Origin: Candidatus Saccharimonadota bacterium
Lineage (GTDB): Bacteria > Patescibacteriota > Gracilibacteria > BD1-5 > UBA2023
Reading direction: 5' to 3'
NCBI GenBank assembly: GCA_042852035.1
Contig: BAAFHK010000003.1
Span: 120,001 to 152,000, forward strand
Length of the DNA stretch: 32,000 nucleotides
A program made the translations under genes and the position numbers. Shown one piece after another: positions 2,334 to 30,492 of this stretch; position 1 is the stretch's first letter; the number at the start of each line of letters is the position of its first letter. A model generated the notes under the pieces. That model searched no databases. It had not been told where the DNA came from and saw only the letters and a program-made list of their open reading frames with translations.

Positions 2334-2936
2334 CTATTTTTTTTGTTTCCTACCAAAAATTTTCCACATAAAATAGACTATAATAACAGGAACTCCCACG
2401 ACCTTAAATTCATGAAGATATTTCACAGCAATATCAAGAACCATCTGACCAAATGTCCATCCAAGCCAAACAAGGATACCACACCAAAGAGTAGCACCAA
2501 GAAAAGTAATCAACCAAAATGGAACCAATGGCATACGAAATATTCCAGCTGGAATAGATATGAGGTGTCGAACAACCGGAATAAGTCTACCAAGAAATGT
2601 ATAGAGATTCTGATTTTTTAGAAAAAGATCTTCTGCTCTTTGGTATTTTTCTTTTGTTATGAGAATATATTTTCCATATTTTTCAAGCAGTGGTTTCCCA
2701 ACCCATCGGCCAATGATAAAGTAATTTGCAGTAGCTCCCGCAACAGATCAAATTCCTCAAGCAAGGATAGAAATATACGGATCTAATCCGCCTGATTTCG
2801 CAATCCAACCCGCAGGAATCATAACAAATTCTGATGGGAGAGGAATAATCGATGATTCCATTGCCATGAGGATAAATATATCGAAATATGAAAGCGTCCC
2901 AAACCAAGCAATTATGTTTTCCAAGATGTGTTGCAT
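2334..2936 (-). CDS. dedA: DedA/SNARE-associated family inner-membrane protein (200 aa)
   Basis: ATG 2936 (MQHILENIIAWFGTLSYFDIF...), then ...SIIPLPSEFVMIPAGW..., ...LGRLIPVVRHLISIPAGI...; ends TAG 2334-2336. Two in-frame TGAs. The track ORF 2683-2958 is an off-frame shadow. Confidence 0.8.
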
Positions 2937-4217: not shown

Positions 4218-5027
4218 AAAGAGTTGATTATAAAATGCTCGTTGCTTAACTCATCCTCGATCGGGCCACTCAGAGAGACGAGTTAGTTTTCACTCAAGAG
4301 TAGTATTATACCGAAAAAGACCGAATCGTTTTAGAAGAATTTTTCCATATGAAATAGGCTCACTGTGTTCAATATGAAACGCCATTATTGGAATCTCTGG
4401 AGCACTCCCTTCTGGTGCTGATTCATGAGAAAGTCAGCGAAGAATCTGTCCAAATAAAGCTTGGAACGGCTTATTATTTCCATAATCTTCTCAAGGTCAT
4501 GCAGGAATGAGGAAAATATATCCTCATTCCTGATGTATAGCCTTGAGTTTCATTTTGAGAACTTCAAGAAGTCCATGCATCTCATTTCTTCCACCTTCTA
4601 CCGCTGGTTCAAATTGGTATCATGGAAATTGCTTACGATTCATCTCAAGATTATATGGGCCAGTAAAAAAGAGTGTTTGCCTTAAAATATCATCCCCAAG
4701 ATATCAGAATGCTGGAAGATAATCAGGAAACTTACTACAGTGATGGTTGAGAATAATAACCCCTCTCCCTGCTTCTTTGAGCTTATGAATTTGGGCCTGA
4801 AGTCAGGACTCATCAATTACAGATACATCTCGTATAGGTCACCTTTTTGCTCCATTTTTCATATATCTCACTCCCGTTACTCAGAGCTTTTTTGTCGATC
4901 CATAAAGAACAGCAAAAACAGCTCCTCAAACTTCAATAATCTTTGATCTCACTCAAGGATGCTTTTGAATAAAATGTGGTTTGGGTGGCTTATTAGTATG
5001 TATGTTTTCATCAAGATGGGAGGGCAT
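4203..5027 (-). CDS. hypothetical protein (274 aa), weak PlsC-type acyltransferase-like blocks
   Basis: ATG 5027, 18 nt after the prmC stop. Open with TGA=Gly to TAA 4203-4205 (825 nt). ...GVIILNHHCSKFPDYLP... and ...YIFLIPAGPGEDYG... loosely resemble the NHxxxxD and FPEG blocks. The assignment is weak. Confidence 0.5.
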
Positions 5028-5045
5028 ACATATATAATAAAATGT

Positions 5046-5720
5046 TTAATTATTTGTCAAATAAATCTCACAGAATCGTTCCATTCCTGCATAATCTGTA
5101 AAAAATGTCCCTCTCCATCCAAACTTTTTGAGAACTCATTCTGCTATTTCTCTCTGATCAAACCCAAATTCAATAATAAGGGTTCCCTGATATTTTTTTT
5201 CTCGAAGCTCTTGAAAGAGCCTCTCATAGAGCTCAAATCCTGTTTTTTCTCCTCAGAAAAGTGCCAGCTCTGGCTCAAATCGAGTATCGAGACTCATGTT
5301 ACCCCAGTCTTCAGCCTTGATATATGGGAGATTCGCAAGAAAGAGTAACTCAGAAACATTCGGATCAATATTTGAAAGAAGGTCTGAATGAAGAAATTCC
5401 ACACTTTTTGAGGGGTAGTATTTCTGAAAGTTTTCCTGAGCAATCTTGAGTGCTTCAGGTGATATATCGAGAAATATAACCTCATCGACTAAATCTGCTA
5501 CGGAAGTCCCGATAATTCCTGATCATGAACCAATATCCACAACTTTGCGTATTTTCCCCTGTCGTAAAACTGTTCGCGCTCTACGGATTAATGCTTCGGT
5601 TTCGAGTCGGGGAATAAGTACAGCAGGAGTGACTCGGAATTCACGACCAAAAAAATTCACAATTCCTGTGATATATTCTTCGGGGTAATTGAGAGGATGT
5701 TCTATTTTTTCTTGTTCCAT
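5046..5720 (-). CDS. prmC: PrmC/HemK-like protein-(glutamine-N5) methyltransferase (224 aa)
   Basis: MEQEKIEHPL...FFGREFRVTPAVLIPRLETEALI, SAM motif VVDIGS-G-SGIIG (Gly = TGA 5523-5525), substrate motif ANLPYI (NPPY variant). TAA 5046-5048. Confidence 0.8.
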
Positions 5721-5750
5721 AATTTGCTTCTTTCTTTTGTGAGTTTTTCG

Positions 5751-5766
5751 ATTTTGTCGACAAAAT
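5751..5766. promoter_or_regulatory. perfect 16-bp palindrome upstream of prmC (possible operator)
   Basis: ATTTTGTCGACAAAAT, 31 nt upstream of the prmC ATG, in a 186-nt intergenic region. Confidence 0.3.
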
Positions 5767-5906
5767 TTTCGTAAAAAAATTGCACCTGTTTGAGCGTGGA
5801 ACGCGAGTTTTGCAATTTTAGAAAATAAGTTGGAAACAGAATCCAAAACGAGCAAACAAAAGAAGAACTTTTTGATTCTTTTTTGGTTACAAAAAGAATA
5901 GAGGAC

Positions 5907-6671
5907 TTATGCATTATCAAAGCTCTTTCTGGAAAAAATCCATGCTCAAATGCAAAGAATCGTCAAAATATATATGATTCAGACACTATATCAGCTATAC
6001 CATACTCAAAGATTGATTGGAGCTCACGTTGCGACATAATTTTTTAAGTTCATAGCCTCAAGATTCGGGAAAAAAATGAGAAGTGCACGCCCAATATAGT
6101 AAGCTTGAGTGGATGCCTCCCATCGAGAATAATCAAGCATTGCATATCCTCAATGACCTATGATATAGGAAGCTATTGTAAGAAACATTGCTATCATTGG
6201 AGAAACAAATGTAGAGAAAAAAAGAATGAGAACCAGGAGGGAGAAGAGCTTTAGAATTATTCAGAAGATTGCAGGAAGCATGAGAGAATCAATGCCAAAT
6301 CATTTAAAAAAAAGCAGTCCTATAAGAAGCAATGATTGAAATATCACCATACTCATAACTACTAGAGAGAAACCAAGAAATTTCCCGATAAATATCGAAG
6401 ATCGAGAAACGGGCTTCGAGAGCATAAGAAATATAGTACGTCATTCTATCTCACGAGCTATCATACCTCCGCCAAGAAACAAAATTACAGCAACTCACGT
6501 TAATTCAATAAATGATAGACCAAAATCATAAAGAACCCTCTCGAGTTGTCCAAGCGCAAGCGTTTCTAGAGCATACGACATACCCAGAAAAACTACTCAA
6601 AGAAAAAGGATAAGTGAAAAGAATTTGTTTCGAACCAATTCTCGAATCGTATTGAGAGTAATAGTAAACAT
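5907..6671 (-). CDS. ABC-2 type transporter permease (NosY-like), 254 aa
   Basis: MFTITLNTIRELVRNKFFSL..., conserved ...MIAREIE-G-RTIFLMLSKPVSRSSIFIGKFLG..., about 6 hydrophobic segments. TAA 5907-5909. No adjacent ATPase gene. Confidence 0.7.
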
Positions 6672-10070: not shown

Positions 10071-11375
10071 TTGGATCCCTTACCAATAATAATTTTTCTT
10101 GCTTTAGTTGCAGCGCTCGCATTTTTCGCTGGTACAGAAATCCCACTCATGTCTGTGAGCCAACATAAACTTGACTGATGGATAAAGCAAAAAAGATGGT
10201 GAGCCCGTACGCTTGCACGACTCAAAAAACAAAACGAACGCCTTCTTGTAACGAATCTTATAGGTACCTTACTTGTAACAAGTGGTCCAACACTCGTAGC
10301 TGAAAAATACATTACACCTGAAGTAATTCAGGCATTTGGTATTTCAGATCACTTAGCAACTACTATTGTATATATATTTGCTTTTCTTACGATTCTTCTT
10401 TTCGGAGAAATCGCATCAAAAATTATCTGAGTACGGTTTTCTGATACTGTAGCTCTCAAGGTTGCCCATGCATATCAAGTGCTTGTTTGGATATTCCTTC
10501 CGGTCACATGGCTTGTGGAATTTTTTATGAAAGGTCTTTGATGGATTCTCTGAGGAAAAATTGACTTTCATGGACATACTACCGTAACGGAAGAGGAATT
10601 TGATGCGTTTATCGATATGTCACATAAGTGATGAGCTGTGGAAGCAGATGAGCGCCGACAGATAAAAAATCTCCTTTCGCTGGGTGAGATGACTGCTGAT
10701 TCAGTAATGACCCCTCGCGTAAATGTGAAGTTTGTGTACCTCGATAATACAATCGATGAGGTTTGTGATTTTCTTATGTCATCTTCTCATTCGCGAGTTC
10801 CTGTTGCCTGAGAAACTACAGATGATGTAGACTATATAATTACATTCAGAGAAGCATTTAAGATGCAAAAAGAAGGTCATGGAAAATCAAAGCTCAAGTC
10901 TCTCGAACTTGAAAAAATCATGAAGGTTCCACTGACTCAACCACTCGATGATCTTTTTGAGAAGTTCCAAAAATCTCGTCGCCATATGGCCCTCGTTCTT
11001 GATGAACATGGAGGAACCTCCTGAGTGGTTACCATGGAAGATATTTTGGAAGAAGTATTTTGAGATATAAAAGATGAAAAAGATAAAGAAGAAATCTATA
11101 TGAGAAAACATCACGGTGGAAAAATAGATGCTGTAGGAACCGTTCTTATCGATGATATTCTTGAAGAATATGATGTACATGCAGAAGATTATGGCATACC
11201 AGAAGAGTATCTATGAGAGGCACTCTCATACGTTATGATGGCTGAAAAAGAAGAATTTCCCATCACCGGATCCGAGGTAACATTTCATGGAACTCATGGA
11301 AGGATTGTACTACGAGCCGTCCTTGTCCAAGACAATGTCATCGAAAAAATTGAGTGCGAAAAACATCATCATTAA
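10071..11375 (+). CDS. CNNM/TlyC/CorC-family protein (DUF21 TM domain + CBS pair + CorC_HlyC), 434 aa
   Basis: TTG start 10071 (no in-frame ATG upstream). ...FFAGTEIPLMSVSQHKL..., ...LFGEIASKII..., ...MTPRVNV...SRVPV...[31 protein letters not shown].... 11 in-frame TGAs. TAA 11373-11375. Confidence 0.85.
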
Positions 11376-11384
11376 ATAAAAATT

Positions 11385-11412
11385 AAAAAATCCTCCATGT
11401 GGAGGATTTTTT
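11385..11412. terminator. bidirectional rho-independent terminator
   Basis: A-run, TCCTCC (11391-11396), loop ATGT, GGAGGA (11401-11406), T-run. Sits between the convergent CorC-family gene and rpsU. Confidence 0.7.
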
Positions 11413-11434
11413 GGATACATATTGTATACGAAGA

Positions 11435-11632
11435 TTACACCTTCTTCGAAAGTGCACGGTAATATTCACGGACGATTGCTTGTTCACGAACCTTTCTTTT
11501 TGAAAGATCACGAGAGTGAGTTTGAGCATTCTTAAGCTTATTTGCAGTACGAGTCTGGAAAAAAGACTTCTTGTAGCGCATAAGGAGTTTTTCACTGGAT
11601 TCAGCTTCTTTACGGATTGCGTAGCAGATCAT
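11435..11632 (-). CDS. rpsU: 30S ribosomal protein S21 (65 aa)
   Basis: Internal Met of track ORF 11435-11740. MICYAIRKEAESSEKLLMRYKKSFFQTRTANKL...SKRKVRE matches the S21 pattern (V-RK-ES-E--L-RFK-S...KRK; compared with B. subtilis S21 from memory). No TGA codons. Confidence 0.7.
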   Translation of the reverse strand: MICYAIRKEAESSEKLLMRYKKSFFQTRTANKLKNAQTHSRDLSKRKVREQAIVREYYRALSKKV

Positions 11633-11734: not shown

Positions 11735-11772
11735 GGACAAAAAAAGCGAAGAGCCCTGCGATTGCAGGGCTC
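11735..11772 (-). terminator. rho-independent terminator of the high-GC gene
   Basis: Minus strand: GAGCCCTGC-AATC-GCAGGGCTC (11751-11772) followed by TTCGCTTTTTTTGTCCTTTT. Confidence 0.65.
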
Positions 11773-11894
11773 TTAAGGAGTTTCAGCTTTAGAGAGTGTT
11801 TGACCACCTCCTTACTGATTCGTCCTTTTTCGCATCTTACTCACACTTGGGGGATGGGATCCCCCTGAAGTCCTCACCACCGAGCGGTGGTGAG
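11773..11894 (-). other. multi-hairpin GC-rich 3' UTR
   Basis: CTCACCACC-GCTC-GGTGGTGAG (11873-11894). GGGGGAT-CCC-ATCCCCC (11849-11865). TAAGGAG...CTCCTTA stem (11773-11780 with 11808-11814) enclosing a 27-nt loop. Confidence 0.5.
11816..11858. repeat. left arm of the imperfect inverted repeat bracketing the high-GC CDS
   Basis: TGATTCGTCCTTTTTCGCATCTTACTCACACTTGGGGGATGGG versus the reverse complement of 13281-13323. Identical blocks TCGTCCTTT, CATCTTACTCA, TTGGG; about 33 of 43 positions match. Confidence 0.6.
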
Positions 11895-11900
11895 AGTGTT

Positions 11901-13181
11901 TTACTTCTTCTTGTCGACAGGAACAATCACTTGGTCCACTGCGGAACCAGGGTTCCCCGGCGTGCCCTCGACCGTACGCGTGGCGATCACGGAGCCGTCG
12001 GGAGCCTTGACCACGTAGGTGGCCTTGGCGCCCGCATTCGGCTTGGGCAGCTTGCCCATGTAGTCCTTGAGGGACTCCGAGCAGGTCTTGCCGTTGGCGA
12101 AGATGACGACACCATTGTCGAGGCGGTAGCAGACGTTGGGGTCACGCTTGCCGCCAGGAGTGGGACGCACCACGCCAGGGACGCTCAGGACCTGAGCTTC
12201 GGCCAGGGCCGTCAGTTCGATCGTGACGGTCTGCGGCGGATCCTTCGGGGGGGTCAGGAGGAGGCGGGTCTGCTGGAAAGAGCAGCCGAATTCCATGATG
12301 CTCGTACCGAAGGAGGTGTTGGCCTGATTGCCATTGACTCCCACGGCGTTCTCCACCCCGTTGCGCACGACACCATTACTGGCACCGCCGCCCACGAGAT
12401 AAGCGAACATCACGTACTCGAAGCCGATCACATCTCGTTCTTGGACGAGTTGGCCTTTTTCGTTGTAGCCGACGATGTTCCACTCACCATAGGTGAGCTT
12501 TCCTTCGGGGCCGGTCTTGGCGCTGGTGGTCTGTTCGAAGCCGTTGTCGTAGCCCCAAGAGAAGAGGCCCGCAATCGTGCCACGGGTAGCCGACAGGACA
12601 CGTTTGTCCGTGATATTAACCTTGCCCACGCAACCCGAACGGACTGTCGTGATGCCACCACCTGGAAGGATGGTGTTGGCGGCTGAAACGGCTGCACCGT
12701 TCACCGGAATCGTGGGATAGTAGGTATTGTTCCCCACCGTCACCGTACCGACACCGCTGCCCGTACCGCCGTTGGCCTGCGCGTTCGCGTTGCCACCGTA
12801 GGCCTGGACCGCATTGCGCAGATTGGTCATGCTCGAGGAGTTGCCTCCCGAAGCAGAGACCTCACGCAGCGCACCGAGGACGTTGGTGTTGACGAGGTTC
12901 ATCGACTGGAGGGCCGTGAGGACCTCGTTGCGATTGCTCGACTGGTTGAGGAGCTGTGCTGCGAGCTCGGCATTGCCCTGGGCCACCGCATCAGCGATGG
13001 AACGAGCTGTGGAAGCAGCATTCGCATCCGCATCAGCGGAAGAAGGTGTGCCACCAGGCGACTGGTGACCCCCGCAACTGGTGCAGGGCTGCGATGTTCC
13101 CGTTGCGTGTGCCAAGCCATTACCGAAAAGCGCGGTGACGACAGCTGCTGCAATGATAGAACTTCTCATGATGGTATCCAT
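11901..13181 (-). CDS. secreted protein of unknown family (426 aa from ATG 13181, 422 aa from ATG 13169)
   Basis: Part of the 463-aa track ORF. Sec-type signal peptide MRSSIIAAAVVTALFGNGLAHA/TG. Strong G/C third-position periodicity in this frame. About 55 Gly codons, none TGA. Stop TAA 11901-11903. No family recognised. Confidence 0.8.
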   Translation of the reverse strand: MDTIMRSSIIAAAVVTALFGNGLAHATGTSQPCTSCGGHQSPGGTPSSADADANAASTARSIADAVAQGNAELAAQLLNQSSNRNEVLTALQSMNLVNTNVLGALREVSASGGNSSSMTNLRNAVQAYGGNANAQANGGTGSGVGTVTVGNNTYYPTIPVNGAAVSAANTILPGGGITTVRSGCVGKVNITDKRVLSATRGTIAGLFSWGYDNGFEQTTSAKTGPEGKLTYGEWNIVGYNEKGQLVQERDVIGFEYVMFAYLVGGGASNGVVRNGVENAVGVNGNQANTSFGTSIMEFGCSFQQTRLLLTPPKDPPQTVTIELTALAEAQVLSVPGVVRPTPGGKRDPNVCYRLDNGVVIFANGKTCSESLKDYMGKLPKPNAGAKATYVVKAPDGSVIATRTVEGTPGNPGSAVDQVIVPVDKKK

Positions 13182-13274
13182 TTTCCTGTGGCCGATTGTA
13201 TGCGGCCGGGGTTTTTGGTAGAGCGGACGGGTGTCCACCCCTTTGCTTTCCGGGGGTGGGTCCCCCCGGTCCCT

Positions 13275-13303
13275 ATTATACCAATCACCCAAATTATGAG
13301 TAA
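13275..13303 (-). promoter_or_regulatory. internal extended -10 promoter (P2) inside the right repeat arm
   Basis: Minus strand: TTACTC (13298-13303), 17-nt spacer, TGG-TATAAT (13275-13283). Confidence 0.4.
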
Positions 13304-13323
13304 GATGTTAAAGGACGACTCAA
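13281..13323. repeat. right arm of the imperfect inverted repeat bracketing the high-GC CDS
   Basis: The reverse complement reads TGAGTCGTCCTTTAACATCTTACTCATAATTTGGGTGATTGG. See left arm 11816-11858. Confidence 0.6.
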
Positions 13324-13396
13324 ACTGTGACTGGCGAGGAGCCAGCACTGAACAGAGTCAGACTTTCTCCACCGTCCCCACAAAGTGAGCGGATGA

Positions 13397-13424
13397 ATTA
13401 TAGTTTATAATATATTTGTGTCAA
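13397..13424 (-). promoter_or_regulatory. near-consensus sigma70 promoter (P1) driving the high-GC gene
   Basis: Minus strand: TTGACA (13419-13424), 16-nt spacer, TATAAT (13397-13402). Sits in AT-rich sequence at the island edge. Confidence 0.55.
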
Positions 13425-13527
13425 TAAAATATTCGACATTTTTAATATTTTACCCATTTAAAAAAAGTTTCTTGACTCCTTAAAGCCAAGACCGGGGTTT
13501 TGTCATCACAAAAAAATCACAAAACTC

Positions 13528-14007
13528 TTATAATGAAGCAGGGACTGTGATTTCTTCACTCCTTCATAAGGCAGAGTTTGTTCTCATACGAAAGTGATCC
13601 CTAATAGAGAGGGGGCTATTATGAAGTGAAACGCTTGCCACTGGATAGAGTACAGGCTCTCTTCGGAAATAATCTTGACCCGTAAGAACAACCAATCATC
13701 CAATATTGTTAGTTGAGATAATAAGATTAAGCTCACGAGGAAGTGATCTTCAATAATTTTCCTTGGAATAAAAGTCCAATGAAGTATTTTCTTCAAAATC
13801 AGAAAAAACCGATGCAATAACTCTCTCTGAATCTACAGAATAACCTTTTATGCGAACATAAAATGGCATAGGAAAAGCACTCATCTCAAGCCTGAGAAGC
13901 GTTCCTATAGGAAATCTTTCAAGAAAATCTGGCGGACTTTCAATCTCGGATGCTTGATCGAATCTATCAGATAATGGCATAGAAGTATCATAACATAATT
14001 TAGACAT
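13528..14007 (-). CDS. hypothetical protein (159 aa)
   Basis: ATG 14007 (MSKLCYDTSMPLSDRFDQ...). The track ORF 13750-14007 continues through 3 TGAs to TAA 13528-13530; checked triplet by triplet. No recognisable motif. Confidence 0.5.
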
Positions 14008-14385: not shown

Positions 14386-14931
14386 TTAAAAATGTATACT
14401 TCTCACTGCCTGAGGAACTCTCTTTAAAATATCGTGGGCATCAGTTTGATTCGCTGAATGAAGGAGTCAGAGATTATTCTTAAGCTCCTTATCATTCCCA
14501 TGATATACTCAAACAGCGTACACTGTTGGATCTTGATTCCTGAAGGGAACTCACGAGTAAGATCATGTCTCCATATCGCCATCAATATGCTGAGCTTGTG
14601 GTCAATCACATTTTGCGATTATCCCTTCTTGAGGAAATTTATGACCAAATAATTCTTGGTAACGAACCTCAAAGTCGCTACTTATAGGAGCAATCAGAAA
14701 AAATTTTACAAATTGATATCCAAGAGTTTGTCTCTCTTTATCCGTGTAGCTTTCAAAAGAAGATGCTCCATGTGATTCGATTTTGATATAAAGAGGAAAC
14801 TTCTCGAGTCATACGAGATAAATAGCATAATTCTTCCCTTCTTGAAGGACGCTAATAATGTCGCCTCATATAATCATTGGGTTACTGTTGGGTGAAGTCT
14901 GGGGGGATTTTTCTGCAAAATTCGGATTCAT
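14386..14931 (-). CDS. hypothetical protein (181 aa as read; possible frameshift near 14610)
   Basis: ATG 14931 (MNPNFAEKSPQTSPNSNPMII...). Frame open to TAA 14386-14388 with 7 TGAs, 5 of them in the last 76 codons, where the +1 frame (track ORF 14424-14609) is TGA-free. Confidence 0.45.
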
Positions 14932-15035: not shown

Positions 15036-15767
15036 TTATAAATTGTATTCTTTATCAACAAAAGTATCAATAATGTTCCAAGTCATGAGTAATATTTCAT
15101 CTATCTCCTTCTTACTCATATCTTTATGTCATTCATGTCTCTCTCGGGAAAGGTTATCAACTTTCCATGACTCTACCTTTTCTCGGTTTGCTCCAGTTCA
15201 TTCTACAAACTTCTCCCAAGAATCTCTCTCATTTAATGTATGGTATTTTTTTTCAGTGTAACTTCTCAATAGTTCGATAGCTCGATAACAGTGGTAGCCC
15301 GTATCAAGAGGAAATCGTATAGCCTTATTGAGCTCTAAGAAACATTTTCGAATATAGTCAGCAATCTCTCTATTTTCTCGAAAGATACTGTGAATCTTAA
15401 GCATCTCGTTTCGAAAATTTTCTATTTTGTTCTTATTTTTTTCCTGAAGAACTATTGCGCTTGATGCATACATCTTTTCTTCTTTATCCTCTTCGAGGAT
15501 GGACACTATCTCAACATCGTATCCATTTCAAGAAATATAACTCCAGAGGGAGGCTTCCTCTTGAAAAAGATCTTTTACAGTTTTTTTAAGGAGACTAAGA
15601 TCCCCAGAGAAGGACTCATTCGTCCTAAATAATCAGAAAGCATACCCTCATTGAATACTTCATTGCATCTCCCCGATTCGGGTTGTTATTTGTGGGAATG
15701 TATGATTTAATAGGGCGTGTACGGGATGAACAATTCCGAGAATATGGTATGTTGACATAGTTTTCAT
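15036..15767 (-). CDS. hypothetical protein (243 aa; alternative start 15668)
   Basis: Track ORF 15198-15506 extended through TGAs on both sides. Ends ...NLSRERHE-G-HKDMSKKEIDEILLMTWNIIDTFVDKEYNL, TAA 15036-15038. The ATG at 15767 abuts the typA terminator T-run, so the start is uncertain. Confidence 0.5.
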
Positions 15768-18393: not shown

Positions 18394-21300
18394 ATGGTAG
18401 AGTTTCTGTACTTTCTTACCCTTTTCCATATGGCAGAATCTGTAGAAATCGTCCGAAGTGATGCAAACACATGACCAACATATCATTTCTCGAACTATAA
18501 GCAGCTCCTTAAGGCCCTTGAGGCAAATTGATATAATGAAAAATGGTGAGCAAAAGATGTTCCAGAGACTTTTTCCCAAATTACTCTGAGTGAACAAGAG
18601 TTGAAGGATTTAGTAAAACGACTTAATCAAGCACAAACTTGCTTTGAGCAACAGAATCTTCTACGGATAATTACGATGAATAAATTGAAATCTGAACTTG
18701 GAAGTATCACGTTTCGCAATACCGAAGAGCTCAAAACTGCAATAGAACAAAGGTGAGTTGATTATCCAAAAAAATACCTCCATCAAAGCGCTGAATCTGA
18801 AATTATAAAGTGATTCTCAGCTCACAGAACTCTCTCTACTTCTCAATGGGAAAAACTTATAACAGACCTAAAGTGAGTAAACGAGTCAGACCCAATGCTC
18901 GATCAAAAACGAGGAGAAATTATTATAGCAGCATTCTGAATTTCAACAGGAACTCCCCGTGCATGAACGGCCTGACTTGAGGCAGCAACTCCTGGACCAC
19001 AAAAAGTTCTTGTTGATGAATTTTATCCGTCTCGCGAGGAGGCTACAAAAGATGCATTTAAATGAGCAACTTCATTCCCTATCACAGTAAAATATTCTGA
19101 GGGAGGAAAATCTTATGAATATCAAGTTACCACAACAGGAAATAAGATGATTTTTGGTTGAAAAGAAATTTCTTTTACTCACAAAGCAGGATCGGTGGCA
19201 AAAATATCTCTCGTAGAAAATATGATTGTATTTTTTGATGCATCGAACAAACAGGTATTTGCAATCGATAAAAGAACATTTGGGTCTGAAATTAGTGGGG
19301 AACTTCTTAAAAGAAATAATCCAAAATTAGAGCTCTTTGGTGATATAAAACTTCAAGTAGCCTGATCCGTAAGTGCAAAAAATATTCCTACCCCTCAAGT
19401 GGAGAAAGAACTCACCGGAGAGGAGCTTAGGCAGTATATTTTTACACTTGCAAAAAAAGAACTCGAAGGGATAACCAGTACTGCGGAAAAGATGACTCCT
19501 GAAGAACTCGAACAAAAGATACAAAGCGCAACTGCTTTACTCGATTTCAAATGGCTTGAAAAAATTCCTGGCATGAAGGATAAAGTAAAAGAAATAATGA
19601 AGTTTGATGTTACTATGGAGTGAGTTATTGGGGCTGGATTTGTCGGCATGCTCGAAAAACAAGGGTATAAAATGCGATTTGTCGGAAAAAACAAAGTTGA
19701 AGTTGGACATGCAAGTGGAAGCACTGATGCAAAGGATGTCGAATCAAAGGTAAATATGCATCTCTCGAATAACCCTCGATTTGTCAGGATGGTTCAAACA
19801 GGAATGCTCTATAGACAACCATCTTTTGAAATGTATCGTCAAAATGTTACCGATGCTGATGGAAAACTTATCAATCCTGAAAAAACAACCATCTCGAACT
19901 ATACGGAGTATCTCATGAAGCGTCGCAAATCCCTCAACCCAACAGAAGCTCTTTTCTTACAATCAGCTCGATACTTTGATAAAGATATTTCATTTGCCTC
20001 TATAGTAACTCAATGAAAGGACTACCAGGCTGTCGTAGGTTTTATGCAGAGCATGACGGATGACGAGGATCTCCGTGGTCTTCTCGGCACTCCTGAAAGA
20101 GGTCCAAACTGAACAGGATGATCTCGAGCCACAGAACCCCCAGCCCCTCCTGCATCAGGCAATGAAAGAGGCGGATCAGGAGGTCCAGCATGAACTGCAT
20201 GACAGGCACTTGGAAAAATTGGTTGACTCATTGGAAAGCTTGGAGAAGCAGGAATTGGTGGATGAATGCGTGTTCTTTGAGAGATTTTTCAAGAAGCTAA
20301 TAAAGCAGGTGGAGCATATGGAACACTCGCAGTAATCGGTCTTATTGGATATTCTATATTTGGAAAAAAAGGACTTGGATTTTGGGGAACCATCGGGGCA
20401 ATCCTTGGTCTCGGTGTGGCTGATACTGCAGCACGGGGTTGATTCAAGGGTATGTTCTCTTGATGAAATACTCCAGGGGGTAACCCAGCCTGAGAACCTC
20501 CAGCTCCAAATGCTGCTGCTGCAGCTGTTGCACCTCCAGCGCCATCCGTATGAACTGGGCCTGCAAATCAACCTTGAGAAACCCCTCAAGCTAAACCACT
20601 TACAGAATCTTCATTTATTGCTCGTGCAGTTGGTCGAGAGAATATTTATGATACAGATGTTGAGAACGAACGAAGCATAATAAATGCGACGAAAAAAATG
20701 AATTTCTTAAAACTTCAGACCGCTCTATCGAAGTGAGATAAACCTTCTTGGAAGGCTGCTGTAGATAGTGCGGGGTTCAAATCTGGAAGTGCTGAGTATA
20801 AGGCTCTTGCTCAGGCAATTCATGCAAAAAATGAGTTTGGACGAAATACTCTCGCTTCAGTCATGAATCATATAAGTATTAATGAGCATATGAAGAGTCT
20901 TGATCCTGCGAATAGTGCAGGACTCTCACTCGAACAGGCTATAGAATACATTATTAAAAAAGAAAATGAAAAGAAGCAGGAAGACGCTCAATGAACTTTT
21001 GAAGTAGAACAACCAGCCTGATCTCCTCCAATTCCTCCATGACATCCATGAGTGAGAGATATTCTTAACAAAAATGAAGCCTACGGTAATCTCGTGATTC
21101 TTGCACGAATGGTTGAAAATGGTTACCTACCAAAAATCAACTTTACCGCAGGCGAAGTTCTATGAGGAACTTGATTTGTACAAAGATTTGTTCGCTGATT
21201 TGTCTGGGTATGACTTGGTGGACCCCTTACGAATAATACGCCTGGTGCGAATTGGTTTTCATGAAAATACCGAGTTCATGAGGAAGCTTTTTATAGCGCT

Positions 21301-22332
21301 GTAAAAAATCTTGTTGATGAAGAGAAAGCTGTTATCAAAAAAGAAACTCCATCACTCCCAAATGAAGCTGTATTTCAATGACTTCGTGATGAAGTAACAG
21401 CAAGAAATGCGGCCCTCTTAGAACTCGAGGAAGCTCTTTCGAGCAAAGATCCTGCAAGAATCAAATCCGCCCTTGCAAAATATCGTGAAGTAGCAAAAAC
21501 ACCTTTCTATAAATGAAGAATAGATAAGGAAAAATTTGCTCTTTCTGAAAGACAGTCTATCACTGCTATAGAGACTGTAAATGCCCGAATTCAGGAAGAA
21601 TACAATACTTGGAAGCAGGCTCAAGATATCGCCAACTCAGAAACCGCAACCCCTGAGCAAAAGAAAACTGCTCTCGAAGCCTCAAATAAATATAATCAAA
21701 GCGTAATGGAACTTGAGGCCCATGGAATAAAGAATCTTCAGCTTCTTTCTCCTGAGGCTCGAGAAGTGGTCATGAAAGAAAATCCTTGGGCTGCAAGAGT
21801 TGCTCAAGCGAATGGTTGACTCGCAAAAATGAATGAAAAACTTGGAAAAGTATGAAGTCATTGGGCAGGAAAAACAATACTCTGAGTGGGTCTAATATGA
21901 CTCCTTTGGGAAAACAAATGATGAGTCGCTGAACTTTGGAATAAGGGTGACTATGTAACCCTCTCAAAATTAGGATGGGATTTGGTTGCTGGCGCTGTTC
22001 CTGTTGTCTCATCAGTTCACGAAACAGCTATGTTGAGTAATGCTGGATGATATCGTGATTTCATTCTCTGAAAGTGATATGAAATGGGAACCCTCGAGAA
22101 GTGATTCCGTGTTGCTGGAGCCATCCCTCTTGGAGTATCATTAACAACAGTTGGAGGAAAACTTGCAGTTAGAGCTGGGGCAAGAGGTGTAGGACAGGCC
22201 GTAATAGGAGTTTCAGAAATCGTATGAAGTTCTGTAAAAACTATCTGAACCGTTGGAACCTTTGGATTCCTTTGATATCAAGCAGTTCATGTTGCCTATA
22301 ATATTCCAATGCACCTTATAGATAATAAATAA
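18394..22332 (+). CDS. giant membrane/surface protein A (about 1312 aa; alternative start 18430)
   Basis: Frame 1 checked line by line: no TAA/TAG from 18355 to TAA 22330-22332, and about 52 in-frame TGAs. Central Gly/Pro linker plus two TM helices (AYGTLAVIGLIGYSIF, GFWGTIGAILGLGVA). C-terminal Gly-zipper-like hydrophobic blocks. Confidence 0.75.
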
Positions 22333-26520: not shown

Positions 26521-29500
26521 GCAGAATGGATTCGCTATCTTAACTCCGTTATTGAACTAGAATCATCGTGGAGATCGGGAAGAATAGCTATAGAAAATCA
26601 CCACCTCGAGAACTACTCTGCAACAAAGGAAAAAACGAAAGCAAAGCTTGCGGAACTTTTTGGAGAAGTAGCAGGATCGGGTAATGCTCCAGGAAACTGA
26701 CCGAATGGTCCAGCAGCTGCAGGAGAAAGCATTAAAGTTGATGGTCCTGATTTTATAAATGAAGCCGTAAGACTCATCGATGATCCAGAGAATCTTAGAA
26801 AACATCTCGAAAAAGTTGATGGAAAGATTGATCAGGCAGGAAAAGATAAACTTCTCGAATTCGTCGATGATATGATTGCCCGAGAATGAAATAGAGCAAA
26901 ACAAAGAAAACTTGAACGAGTAAAAGAAGAAATAAAGAAGCTAAAACTTCGAAGTACTTCTCCAGAGGTCATAACAGAAGTTTCAGTAGAAAAGCTCATT
27001 AAATGAGTCCAGGGAAGGCTTGAGGACTACTCAAAACAAAAATGATATACCGCAATAAAACTTGAGGGCACAGGAGTGTATGCAAAATGAGTTGAAAAGG
27101 CTTCAGCCGTACAGGAGTACCAAGTAACCGTTCATCGAAAAATCACCGTGAATGGTTCGACTTCAGACGCTTCTCCAATAGTAATCTCTGGAATTTGGCT
27201 CCAAACAAAACAACTCTGACCACTTAAAGCAGAAGATGTTCTCTTCAAAGAAATTACAACAAAAATTGAAGAAGCAATGAAGTCCCCAGAATCACAAAAA
27301 GATAGTATACTTGAGGCAAATAAGAAATTTCTCGAGGCAAATAAGGTAAAAGTCGATGCTCTTCTGAAGAGAATTCCAGAAAATCCAAACCCAACTTGGC
27401 TCGAGCAAATACCATCACTCATCAACAACCCAACAAATGAGAATATAAAGAAACTCCAAGAATATTTGGGTATAACTCCTGGAAGCGGAAAACTCGATGA
27501 TGCTACAATAGTAGCACTTGAAAAGGTACTTCCCGCTGGAACACCAACATGAAGAACTGATGTTTGATCTTCAGGAGGAACTCAAGGATGAAGGGAATGA
27601 TCTCGAGAACAAGTTGATTCAGAAGCTGTTGCATATAAATACAATAAACGATACCTCGCAAGCAATCAAAAAAGATTCGGTGATATTCAAAGAAAACTTT
27701 CCGATGCTTCCGATGCAAAACTTAAAAGTCTTGCAAATATACTAGATATATATATAGAAACTCCAAGCCCGGCAAATGCACTCTCAATTCAAAAAGCACT
27801 CAACGGCAAAGATTTTTCAAAGTGACTCACTGAAGATAAAATGATAGGACCTGTGAGTTTAGCGGCTCTGGAATCTGTCATAGGTATTGCATCCCCTAGG
27901 GATCCTGATGGGGCAGGTGGAACGGGTGGCTCTTGAAGGAGAAGAAGAGAAGCTCCTGGATCAGGAGGAAGAGAAAGTGGACCTGCATGAGCACCACCAG
28001 CAGGACAAAGAGACAGAAATCCTCTTGCCTGAGGAGATGCTACAGGGCCACAAGAGTCACTTAATCCTCAAGATAGCACTGTTTCTTTTAGCCGATCTGG
28101 ATCTCTTATTCTTCTCAATGCAAAGGATAAAGAAGGAAATGTTATCCGTGGACTTTCTTATGCTGAACTCCAAAAACTCTCAGGAGCAACCCTCAATAGT
28201 GACCCAAAAATCAATGAAAGAATGAAGGGTGAATATAATCAACTTATCCTCCTCTCTACTATCGCCGATATATGGGTACAAGCAGCAAACAAAGATATGG
28301 ATAATTTGTTTGTTGGATCACTTCGAAGTGGACGAAAAGAGATATACAAACGCAATATTGATGCTATTACCAAATATATCTCTGGTATGCAACAAAAATT
28401 CCTGAAGGGAGAATCTGTTCAGAGTGATATATTTGATGCCTATGCAAAATTTGATTCTGCAAATAGAGACGCGTGAGTTACTCCACCGATAAATATCGAT
28501 GATCTCCGAAAGGCTCTTAATATCGTCCAAGCAAGTGGCGGTACAATGACACAGAAACGTGCTGATATATTAAAGACTCTTTCATCAGTATTTAATACAA
28601 CCGCAACTGAATGAGTAAAGAATACCGCAATGGCTGAAGTAATGAAAATAGAAGTATTCAAATCTGTTCGTGCAAAGCTCGAAGATGCAAATTATTTATC
28701 AACATTTATTGGCTGAACGGGAAAAGAGCGACTTGATCTTCTTCAAAAGGATTTCTGACTGACTTATGATCAAGCCTATTCACTCGCTCGAGAAGTGCGT
28801 GATGTTCTTCAGGGAATGAACACAAACAAAGAAAAAATCAAAGATTCTCTTGCGGCTCAATGAATTCCAGCAGAACAAAGAGATGAGAGAATCAAGCAAG
28901 CAGTTCTTCTTGCAACAAGAACAGTACTCAGTAAATGAGTTGTTGATAATAAAATAGACACCGTAAGTTGACCTTATGTAGAGGCTTACAAGACGGCAAG
29001 TAGAGACCTTACAACATCTCAGATTATTGATATATCAGTTCAGATAGCTATTTCTATGGCACCTATGTGAGCATGAATGCTTGCTGTACGCGGAGCTGCA
29101 GCTCTCGGAACAAAAGTGCTTCCTGGACTTGCTGCATCATGAAGTCGGACAGTTGCTTTATGAAAAATTGCAGGGGAAGGTATAGCATTCTATGAAGGAT
29201 ATAATCTTACGAATAACTTCCTTCGTAACCAGGATACCGAGAATTTCTTGGGTGGACTCACAGAAGGCTGGAGAGATCCAAAAGAGATAGTCAAGAGTGT
29301 CGCAATGGTATGAGTCATTCGCGCTATGGGAATGATACCTGGACAAAAGATTGATGCGATGATTCTAAAAGATAACTCAAAGATGAGACAGCTTGCACTT
29401 GAAGCAGGAAAGGTTGCTGGTATTGCAACAGCCGTGACTGTAACAAGCCAATGAGTAGAAGCAATGTTCGGGGAAGATTTTCATCCTACCCCAGAAGAGT

Positions 29501-30492
29501 TTATTCAAGCAATTATCATGACGGCGCTTTTCAGGAATCTTCCAAAAAAATCTCTAGGAAAAGCGGAATGAAAGAAGCCTGAAGGACCAAAAGAAAAATC
29601 ATCTACCACTCCAGAATGACACGAACTTACTCCTATTACAAGTAGGGCTGGAATAAAGGAAGTACGAACACGACAATCTGCTGATCCGACATATAAGCCA
29701 GAAATTGTAGATGCGAAAGGAAACGTTCTTACTGTAGAGTCTATACGCTGATCAAATGGTCGAGAAGTACTCACTGTTAAGGATGTAAAGGGAAATATTT
29801 CTGAGATTAGTGCTGCTGATCTTGTAAGTGGAAATTATAGAGCCCTCACACGAGCTCAGGAAGCAGCAAAACCAGAAGAAGCAAGAGGAAATGAAACCAC
29901 AAAACCTGAATGAGCGGAACTTCAGAAGTTTTTGACTCAATCTATAAGCGCTAAAGATATTCGAAATGTTCAACGAGCCATGCAAAAGGATCCAAATCTT
30001 TTCCCTCAGTTCATTGCTCAAGATGGAACTATATGGACTATTCGCTCTATAAAAGGAACAAACGCTTCCAATACACAGATTGAAATCGGACCTCTTGGAA
30101 AGCCATCAGTAGCTCGGAGAGCGACTCAACAAGAATTTGTAGAGGGACTCAATAGAAATATTTTAGACCTTACAGTTACCGATACTTTAACACGACTAGA
30201 AAAGATAAAAAAGTGACTCAGTGAACTCAAAAGTCCAAACCTAGAAGCAGTCAAAAAATGGGCAAAAGAAAATAAAGGAATCCTTATTGCATGAGGTGTT
30301 GTCATAACTCTTGCTGGATGAGCAGCTTACTTAATTGGTATAAATGGGCGCGGTGAGGTCCAAGTAGTACCTGCAGATAATTGAGCTGCTACTATGGATG
30401 ATGCTGTCGATGGAGCCGTGGGAAGCACTATTCCTCGAGCTGCTACTATGGATGATGACTCTGCTGCAGCTTGAGCTGCTACTATGGATTAG
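26521..30492 (+). CDS. giant membrane/surface protein E (1323 codons open after the TAG; first canonical start ATG 26872)
   Basis: Frame 1 checked line by line to TAG 30490-30492. There is no ATG/GTG/TTG in the first 117 codons. Two peptidoglycan-binding-like motifs, Gly-zipper/TM blocks (...ISMAPMGAGMLAVRGAAALG..., ...GILIAGGVVITLAGGAAYLIGI...), and a C-terminal AATMD repeat. Confidence 0.7.
30383..30489 (+). repeat. three exact copies of GAGCTGCTACTATGGAT at the 3' end of gene E
   Basis: Copies at 30383, 30437 and 30473 (54 and 36 nt apart, in frame) encode (G/R)AATMD(D) three times. The last copy is followed directly by the stop. Confidence 0.8.

Follow-up and report, generated by a model that had tools for sequence, protein, structure and literature searches.

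A gapped inverted repeat around a GC-rich gene of a UGA = Gly bacterium probably forms a helix joining the two ends of its mRNA

Pairing between the untranslated regions (UTRs) at the 5′ and 3′ ends of one and the same bacterial mRNA is known but rarely documented. Few mRNAs are known to do this, and the examples we found were hbs and icaR. In Bacillus subtilis hbs, a 14-bp interaction of the 5′ UTR with the 3′ UTR modulates cleavage by RNase Y (Braun, Durand and Condon 2017, PMC5737220). In Staphylococcus aureus icaR, pairing of the 3′ UTR with the Shine–Dalgarno (SD) sequence blocks initiation and creates a substrate for RNase III (Ruiz de los Mozos et al. 2013, PMC3868564). Here we analyse a stretch of 32,000 nucleotides from a Candidatus Saccharimonadota bacterium with a Gracilibacteria lineage in GTDB (contig BAAFHK010000003.1, positions 120,001 to 152,000), hereafter called the window, in which the two arms of an imperfect inverted repeat flank a GC-rich gene for a secreted protein. 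Within one single-gene mRNA the arms probably pair with each other, as the 5′ and the 3′ strand of a long-range RNA helix, with stabilisation or processing of that mRNA as its likely role. This helix is not in Rfam. As predicted, it is much longer than those of hbs and icaR; it is kept with compensatory changes in orthologs and in a paralog, and its host lineage is uncultivated and takes UGA for glycine.

The locus resembles hbs in its single-gene and presumably highly expressed mRNA, in its structured leader, and in a segment of the 5′ UTR that pairs with the 3′ UTR of the same message. The hbs pairing guards the leader against endonucleolytic cleavage, and we propose this role for the window helix. 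The hbs interaction covers 14 bp over a mapped RNase Y site, whereas the window helix is predicted to have 22–37 pairs. The two have no sequence similarity and very different hosts, a Firmicute for hbs and, for the window, a bacterium of the Candidate Phyla Radiation with UGA = Gly. With icaR the locus shares intramolecular pairing of the 5′ and 3′ UTRs, double-stranded RNA long enough for RNase III, and a pyrimidine-rich, anti-SD-like strand (UCCUUU in the window) paired with a purine-rich, SD-like strand (AAGGA in the window). The icaR 3′ UTR, however, masks the true Shine–Dalgarno sequence and represses translation, whereas the window helix lies off the ribosome-binding site and carries its SD-like strand in the 3′ UTR.

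An earlier note on this DNA had placed an imperfect inverted repeat at 11816–11858 and the reverse complement of 13281–13323, and both arms are found there. A gapped local alignment of the two flanks of the coding sequence (CDS) gave 34 identical columns out of 44, including the blocks TCGTCC, CATCTTACTCA and TTGGG.GAT.GG. The alignment score of 35 was reached by none of 2000 dinucleotide-preserving shuffles (mean 16.9, sd 2.2, maximum 31), which excludes a chance origin of the repeat. The longest exact match between the arms is 11 bp and there are indels besides; a repeat search splits the arms at these small indels into two collinear pairs, I2 (11828–11852 / 13288–13312) and I18 (11816–11828 / 13310–13322). 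The gene lies on the minus strand, so the left arm is called the 3′ arm and the right arm the 5′ arm. Their distances from the gene, put earlier at about 40 and about 100 nt, also hold, with the left arm 42 nt past the TAA stop codon (11901–11903) and the right arm 111 nt 5′ of the ATG at 13169, or 99 nt 5′ of an alternative ATG at 13181.

Both arms fall inside one predicted single-gene transcript of ~1.65 kb, between a promoter, P1, and an intrinsic terminator (Table 1). P1 does lie outside the right arm, as had been described, and its match to the consensus is complete (12/12). The same TTGACA-N16-TATAAT arrangement is present 5′ of all eight aligned orthologous loci, with TAGAAT in L002, and also in L134 and L137. 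The gene upstream of P1 in the window has its own terminator (13491–13470). When the UTR folds were set against shuffles, the leader had z = -3.25 and the 3′ UTR z = -7.1.

Comparison of the loci shows, at the level of sequence, that the arms co-evolve to stay complementary in the sense RNA. RNAalifold, applied to leader-plus-3′ UTR constructs of six loci, found the arm–arm helix independently (columns 82–112 with 318–351). Matched changes in the two arms can be read directly. The window pair CAUCUUACUCA / UGAGUAAGAUG is one whole C–G pair shorter than in other loci, L002 has CAUCUUCAUUC / GAAUGAAGAUG (..CAUUC / GAAUG..), L001 has AUUCUCACUCAG / CUGAGUGAAGAAU, and L004 has the matched sequences CAUCUUUACUCUCUU / AAGAGAGUCAAGAUG. 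L004 also carries a tandem GC-rich paralog (5193–6338, flanks about 4900–6500) between its main gene and the CNNM gene. It has a TTGACA promoter and a leader of its own, a 5′ arm GACGTCCTTTAACATCCTCACTTCT and a 3′ arm AGAAGTGAGGATGTGGGACGT that matches it. The protein of this paralog is only about 18–30% identical, yet the 5′ arm sequence is retained, and a U–A pair has become C–G (CAUCCUCACU / AGUGAGGAUG; over a longer stretch, CAUCCUCACUUCU / AGAAGUGAGGAUG). Complementarity is kept with compensatory changes in orthologs and paralog alike; the earlier note had named its loss in orthologous cassettes as a refutation.

Pairs were counted in an 18-pair core, using a hand-registered, N-padded alignment with the register fixed by sequence homology; this replaced a plain MAFFT alignment of the arms, in which the 3′ arms of the window and L001 were out of register. 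Standard pairs occupy 91.7% of the cells of the core, compared with 33–52% when the partners are slid against each other. Four pairs changed on both sides, and the covariation score was reached by 3 of 500 shuffles. An alignment-free test, in which each 5′ arm was paired with every 3′ arm, gave a cognate sum of -298 kcal/mol compared with -241.5 +/- 12.8 for permuted partners, a value reached by 8 of 100000 permutations. Furthermore, the arms of 11 of 11 loci form a stabler duplex as sense RNA than as antisense RNA. The core contains 22 G–U cells and, by reading of the alignment, only 2 of its 16 unpaired cells are C–A. This asymmetry through G–U pairs fits pairing in the sense transcript and not a strand-symmetric feature of the DNA. 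The 3′ arm shifts its register and loop length between loci (2–8 nt vs 5 nt) and complementarity is kept.

Folding of the full transcript, which the earlier note had proposed, places the arm–arm helix in the minimum-energy structure. This was the case in all three partition-function folds, of the window (1651 nt), L008 (1745 nt) and L004 (1752 nt), with arm–arm pair probabilities near 1 across the three and values of 0.55–1.0 for the 22 pairs (9 + 13) of the window. As isolated strands the arms form 25–38 pairs across loci; duplexfold applied to entire UTRs over-extended the pairing and does not enter the evidence. The helix is located about 70–150 nt upstream of the start codon, and in the window it leaves the ribosome-binding region free. 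The position of the arms between P1 and the terminator, the compensatory changes and these three folds together support one of the three origins offered by the earlier note, a duplex of the 5′ UTR with the 3′ UTR.

Several points weigh against a long-range helix, or limit how far it can be taken. The transcription start, the 3′ end, pairing inside the cell and any cleavage are model-based predictions, and translating ribosomes or co-transcriptional folding could block contact over 1.45 kb. Formal covariation is modest (4 of 18 pairs) because the core sequence is so conserved, and a large share of the co-variation signal stems from the helix's variable extension, in which structure partly guided the choice of register. 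Since the loci are related by descent, counts such as 11/11 overstate independence, and roughly 7 to 9 distinct lineages are represented. Two distant homologs, L138 and L140, have no 5′–3′ complementarity. Conservation of the 5′ arm, even in the paralog, suggests that something beyond pairing reads this arm too. In a third distant homolog, L139, the leader has an arm-like motif GTCGGCTCTTTGCCAACTTACTC, homologous to the 5′ arm, with which the 3′ UTR can pair. Its complementarity is moderate, at -30.3 kcal/mol, a value that 9 of 300 shuffles attained, and it is the only one in which pairing of the 3′ UTR extends to the SD region.

The whole unit, comprising promoter, leader, CDS, 3′ UTR with its arm and terminator, is present in at least ten related metagenomic loci. 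Gene order is the same in the window, L001, L004, L006 and L134, with BipA and small open reading frames (ORFs) on one side of the gene and a small basic ORF, CNNM, a Wzy_C-like gene, DUF5665, Fmt and HIT on the other, and synteny is kept in all contigs long enough to judge. The promoter, the outer leader and the terminator, all of which lie outside the arms, are conserved equally well. A chimeric assembly was ruled out by the occurrence of the same arrangement in independent assemblies from many samples.

The conservation of the 5′ arm is also an argument for reading the arms as DNA. Its block GTCGTCCTTTAACATCTT, the most conserved of the leader, is nearly invariant in orthologs and kept in the diverged paralog, which exceeds the need of pairing alone. 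It would suit two sites for one regulator, one 5′ of the gene after the promoter and one beyond the gene, that loop the DNA or block transcription. The locus is probably regulated by a DNA-binding protein in any case, given the separate operator-like palindrome over the -35 box of P1; an equivalent, ATGTCAAATA..TATTGACA, is kept in ten orthologous loci, and the palindrome could be an operator or a pair of back-to-back -35 boxes. No single motif is kept by both arms, however, and such sites would not account for the variable register and loop length of the 3′ arm. A double-stranded site would be symmetric, whereas the great majority of the mismatches are of the G–U type on the sense strand and the sense duplex is favoured in every locus, and the lineage-specific double changes preserve pairing rather than sequence. 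Paired regulator sites are thus an unlikely account of the arms.

The remaining two origins raised by the earlier note involve mobility or rearrangement of the gene. It had called the CDS foreign, and in composition it is: the CDS has 61% GC in a window of ~38%, its GC content at third codon positions (GC3) is 0.73 compared with 0.28 pooled over 16 neighbouring genes, and TGA accounts for none of its 55 glycine codons compared with 33% in the neighbours (P about 2e-10). The arms moreover sit at the composition boundary, as terminal inverted repeats would if a non-autonomous mobile cassette had brought a GC-rich foreign gene into an AT-rich genome. The gene itself, however, is an old syntenic resident of the lineage. 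Every ortholog has 59–63% GC within flanks of 38–46% GC, and those with a tabulated CDS (L002, L004, L006, L008, L011, L012, L134 and L137) all have a GC3 of 0.69–0.80 and no in-frame TGA. At four-fold synonymous sites the window gene and its orthologs are only 35–43% identical, close to saturation; since GC3 is high despite this and synteny is kept, the gene is not a recent insertion, and by this comparison the high GC3 is a maintained property of the family and not the fading trace of a transfer. A cassette also fails to account for the shared gene neighbourhood and for the conservation of promoter, outer leader and terminator beyond its supposed ends. The left border reads ..CCTTAC|TGATTCG.. 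and the right border ..GACGACTCA|AACTGT.., and the two flanks share no direct repeat that would mark a target-site duplication; the 32-kb window holds no further copy of an arm. A pattern combining the 8-base hairpin block with the arm had no match in viral contigs and one in metagenome contigs, a chance match in a high-GC contig. In a genome collection, a degenerate 16-mer of the arm was swamped by chance matches, none of those listed having an adjacent leader hairpin, and so carries no information on further copies. We consider a mobile cassette very improbable.

Inversion of the gene away from P1 by an invertase encoded elsewhere, resulting in phase variation, would fit the setting, an inverted repeat around a gene for a surface or secreted protein with a strong promoter outside the arms. 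Such bacteria probably interact with host cells, so variation of the surface is plausible. Nevertheless, gene, P1 and terminator share one orientation in each of the 11 loci, assembled as these were from different samples, and the arms are imperfect, with indels, and diverge asymmetrically through G–U-type mismatches. Inversion would also part the CDS from the terminator and from the conserved orientation of the inner leader. The absence of a transposase or recombinase, already stated in the earlier note, was upheld by a Pfam search of the window ORFs translated with code 25, in which no transposase, recombinase or integrase domain was found and several ORFs had no Pfam match at all. Very little credence can be given to the arms as recombination sites.

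For the RNA helix, a course of events can be proposed. Transcription would begin near 13390 on the minus strand at the consensus sigma-70 promoter and end at the intrinsic terminator near 11740, giving a message that consists of a structured leader of ~220 nt, a GC-rich CDS of 1.27 kb and a structured 3′ UTR of ~160 nt. Leader nucleotides about 73–96 would then pair with nucleotides about 1546–1571 in the 3′ UTR to form a helix of 9 + 13 bp around a small internal loop, extendable to ~37 pairs, with a predicted duplex energy of about -46 kcal/mol. The helix would close the coding region into a loop of ~1.45 kb that encloses the inner leader, the CDS and the proximal 3′ hairpins, leaving an independent 5′ domain and the terminator hairpin outside. 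The duplex may hide both ends of the mRNA from 5′-end-dependent and 3′ exonucleolytic decay, or it may be a processing stem for RNase III, whose cleavage would trim the mRNA and leave its ends base-paired. The outcome would be high and durable expression of the secreted protein. Stabilisation or RNase III-type processing is inferred to be the likely role of the helix. The alternative is a repressive role, in which cleavage by RNase III triggers decay; stabilisation is favoured because the helix, unlike that of icaR, does not mask the ribosome-binding site.

RNase III processing stems, as in rRNA precursors and the mRNAs of phages T7 and lambda, are built from flanking complements that form a helix of about two turns with an internal loop. 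The window helix is similar, with at least 20 bp drawn from distant segments, and could likewise be cleaved to a trimmed product with paired ends. It differs from the processing stems of functional RNAs in enclosing a protein-coding mRNA, and its cleavage is hypothetical. The RNase III gene rnc was not among the Pfam-annotated ORFs of the window, to which the search for it was confined. Long stabilising 5′ leaders are also found on the mRNAs of S-layer and other abundant surface proteins. They have in common with the window gene a strong promoter, a leader that is both long and structured, a signal peptide and strongly biased codons, a likeness that serves as a lead only. S-layer-type leaders act alone at the 5′ end and are not known to have a 3′ partner, whereas one is predicted for the window leader.

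Table 1. Parts of the predicted transcription unit in the window, listed from promoter to terminator (positions count from the first nucleotide of the window)
Feature	Positions	Strand	Basis or remark
Promoter P1, TTGACA-N16-TATAAT	13397..13424	-	12/12 sigma-70 consensus matches
Operator-like palindrome TGTCAA-N8-TTCGACA over the P1 -35 box	13419..13438	.	read from sequence; putative
Predicted transcription start	near 13390	-	from P1
Outer 5′ leader, ~3 hairpins closed by GCUCA/UGAGU, 5′ of the 5′ arm	13324..13390	-	folding
5′ arm (right arm); core paired in minimum-energy fold 13295–13318	13281..13323	-	alignment, folding
Extended -10-like motif TGGTATAAT	13275..13283	-	window-specific
Inner 5′ leader, GC-rich hairpins CCGGGGGG/CCCCCGG, GUGGAC/GUCCGC and GGCCG/CGGCC, and ribosome-binding region	13170..13274	-	folding
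CDS, 422 codons + TAA (alternative start 13181)	11901..13169	-	translation
Proximal 3′ UTR, two GC-rich hairpins, CUCACCACC-GCUC-GGUGGUGAG and GGGGGAU-CCC-AUCCCCC	11859..11900	-	folding
3′ arm (left arm); core paired in minimum-energy fold 11820–11845	11816..11858	-	alignment, folding
Distal 3′ UTR, short hairpin, then intrinsic terminator (stem 11774–11749 + T-run)	11740..11815	-	terminator scan

Other parts of the unit also appear to be maintained as RNA structure. The hairpins of the outer leader were predicted by RNAalifold, with compensatory pairs such as CG x3 / UA x3 at columns 10/78, and nt 1–72 form a closed domain in the full-transcript fold. Compensatory changes also occur in the inner-leader hairpins of the orthologs (RNAalifold columns 186–207 and 220–239) and, again by RNAalifold, in the terminator stem. 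The earlier note had further reported an extended -10 promoter, TGGTATAAT, in the right arm. The motif is present, overlapping the inner end of the arm on the minus strand (13283–13275), but occurs in no orthologous leader; the orthologs have a GGCGTTCA..GACGC hairpin in its place. It is missing from the promoter scan list because it has no -35 box, and is probably incidental.

A search of the UTRs against Rfam returned no family at the gathering score. Matches below threshold were seen in the distal 3′ UTR and terminator, 3′ of the 3′ arm, to rnk_pseudo (24.8 and 30.2 bits, gathering 55) and RsmY (21.9 bits, gathering 57). The rnk_pseudo match (RF01772) recurs in two loci, at 11740–11812 (-) in the window and at 2509–2601 (+) in L137, which probably reflects a generic shape of hairpin plus terminator.

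The proximal 3′ UTR hairpins of the window are also present in L002, and the locus looks mosaic in this respect, with the window and L002 sharing one hairpin type (CTCACCACCGCTCGGTGGTGAG...) and L011 having another (CGTCGGGACGACG...). Yet it is the L011 protein that matches the window protein with the best E-value and the greatest coverage (65% identity, 88% of the query). The proteins P0002 and P0003 have unrelated C-terminal tails. The mosaic 3′ UTR types and C-terminal tails suggest recombination within the locus, or frameshifts.

The CDS product of ~422 residues has a signal peptide and is predicted to be secreted. A Pfam search of the protein found no domain. Close homologs numbered nine among 5.8 billion clustered proteins, and 22 homolog representatives were found among 1.84 billion proteins. 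An AlphaFold2 model, with a mean predicted local distance difference test score (pLDDT) of 67, shows a bundle of helices at the N-terminus and, after it, very long beta-hairpins. Foldseek returned nothing at E < 0.2 against the PDB; its weak best matches (E about 0.2–1) were to beta-pore-forming toxins and are a lead only. Neither Pfam nor Foldseek brought up an S-layer or other recognisable domain. We also considered the GC-rich block as a large non-coding RNA, which was ruled out by a 463-codon open frame, the signal peptide, conservation at the protein level and the saturated synonymous sites. The portions of the literature on Gracilibacteria and Absconditabacteria available to us contain no description of the gene or its composition anomaly.

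The distant homologs L138, L139 and L140, which lie on contigs where TGA = stop, are GC-rich relative to their flanks as well. In L139 (1672–4233 and 6228–7233), the homolog and an upstream neighbour of 353 aa make up a GC-rich block (0.62–0.68 vs 0.38–0.53 beyond), and a serine recombinase with Resolvase and Recombinase domains is encoded ~2 kb downstream.

Several small genes lie beside the GC-rich gene. Directly 3′ of its terminator the window has a conserved basic ORF of 65 codons (~11408–11605, minus strand; MICYAIRKEAESSEKLLMRYKK...), with its own promoter-like site, TTGACT-16-TATCAT (11694–11667, minus strand), and a terminator (11412–11385). By eye it resembles ribosomal protein S21, and it has no Pfam match. 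Between BipA and the GC-rich gene are three further ORFs without a Pfam match, at 13528–14007, 14386–14931 and 15036–15767, all on the minus strand. L006 and L134 have four small genes at the same position, of which those of 154, 134 and 162 aa are shared. From its position, this block of small genes may be functionally linked to the GC-rich gene.

Read with the standard code, the window contains almost no long ORFs, and treating TGA as a sense codon raises the ORF coverage from 20 kb to 77 kb. TGA makes up about 3–4% of codons in the large ORFs of the window (for example 18394–22332 +, 26872–30492 + and 10149–11375 +). By reading of the sequences, we take the TGA positions in BipA and the CNNM-family protein to be conserved glycines of these families, and therefore adopted code 25 (UGA = Gly). 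Gracilibacteria and Absconditabacteria use this code. Under code 25 the window is an ordinary chromosome, with genes for a tRNA U5-methyltransferase, a VTT-domain protein, NusA, a methyltransferase, an ABC-2 permease, HIT, Fmt, DUF5665, a tRNA-Arg, a Wzy_C-like protein, CNNM, BipA and an M48 peptidase. Two of its ORFs are very large, at 18394–22332 (+) and 26872–30492 (+) (1312 and 1206 aa), and belong to no family that is obvious by eye. In both, TGA codons are numerous, and there are hydrophobic segments at the C-terminus as well as stretches rich in Pro/Ala/Gly; one of these stretches causes a local GC bump at 20001–20500.

The helix, the consensus promoter and the extreme codon bias together look like a device for a long-lived and heavily expressed mRNA. 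More tentatively, the locus may represent an undescribed mRNA architecture found throughout a lineage of UGA = Gly bacteria, made up of a closed 5′ domain, an end-joining helix of 25–37 bp and a CDS with actively maintained GC3 (0.7–0.8 vs 0.28) and complete avoidance of UGA. The whole message, encoding a major secreted protein, would then owe its unusual stability and heavy translation to selection at the level of RNA. Alternatively, the conserved UTRs and arms may act as homology handles by which alleles are replaced again and again, while GC-biased gene conversion maintains the high GC content. If the end-joining helix is confirmed, closure of an mRNA from end to end would be a recurring bacterial strategy, and the locus would supply a ready-made RNA element that can be tested. 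The persistence over a long time of a GC-rich, UGA-free gene in AT-rich, recoded genomes bears on the interplay of codon usage, recoding and mRNA structure.

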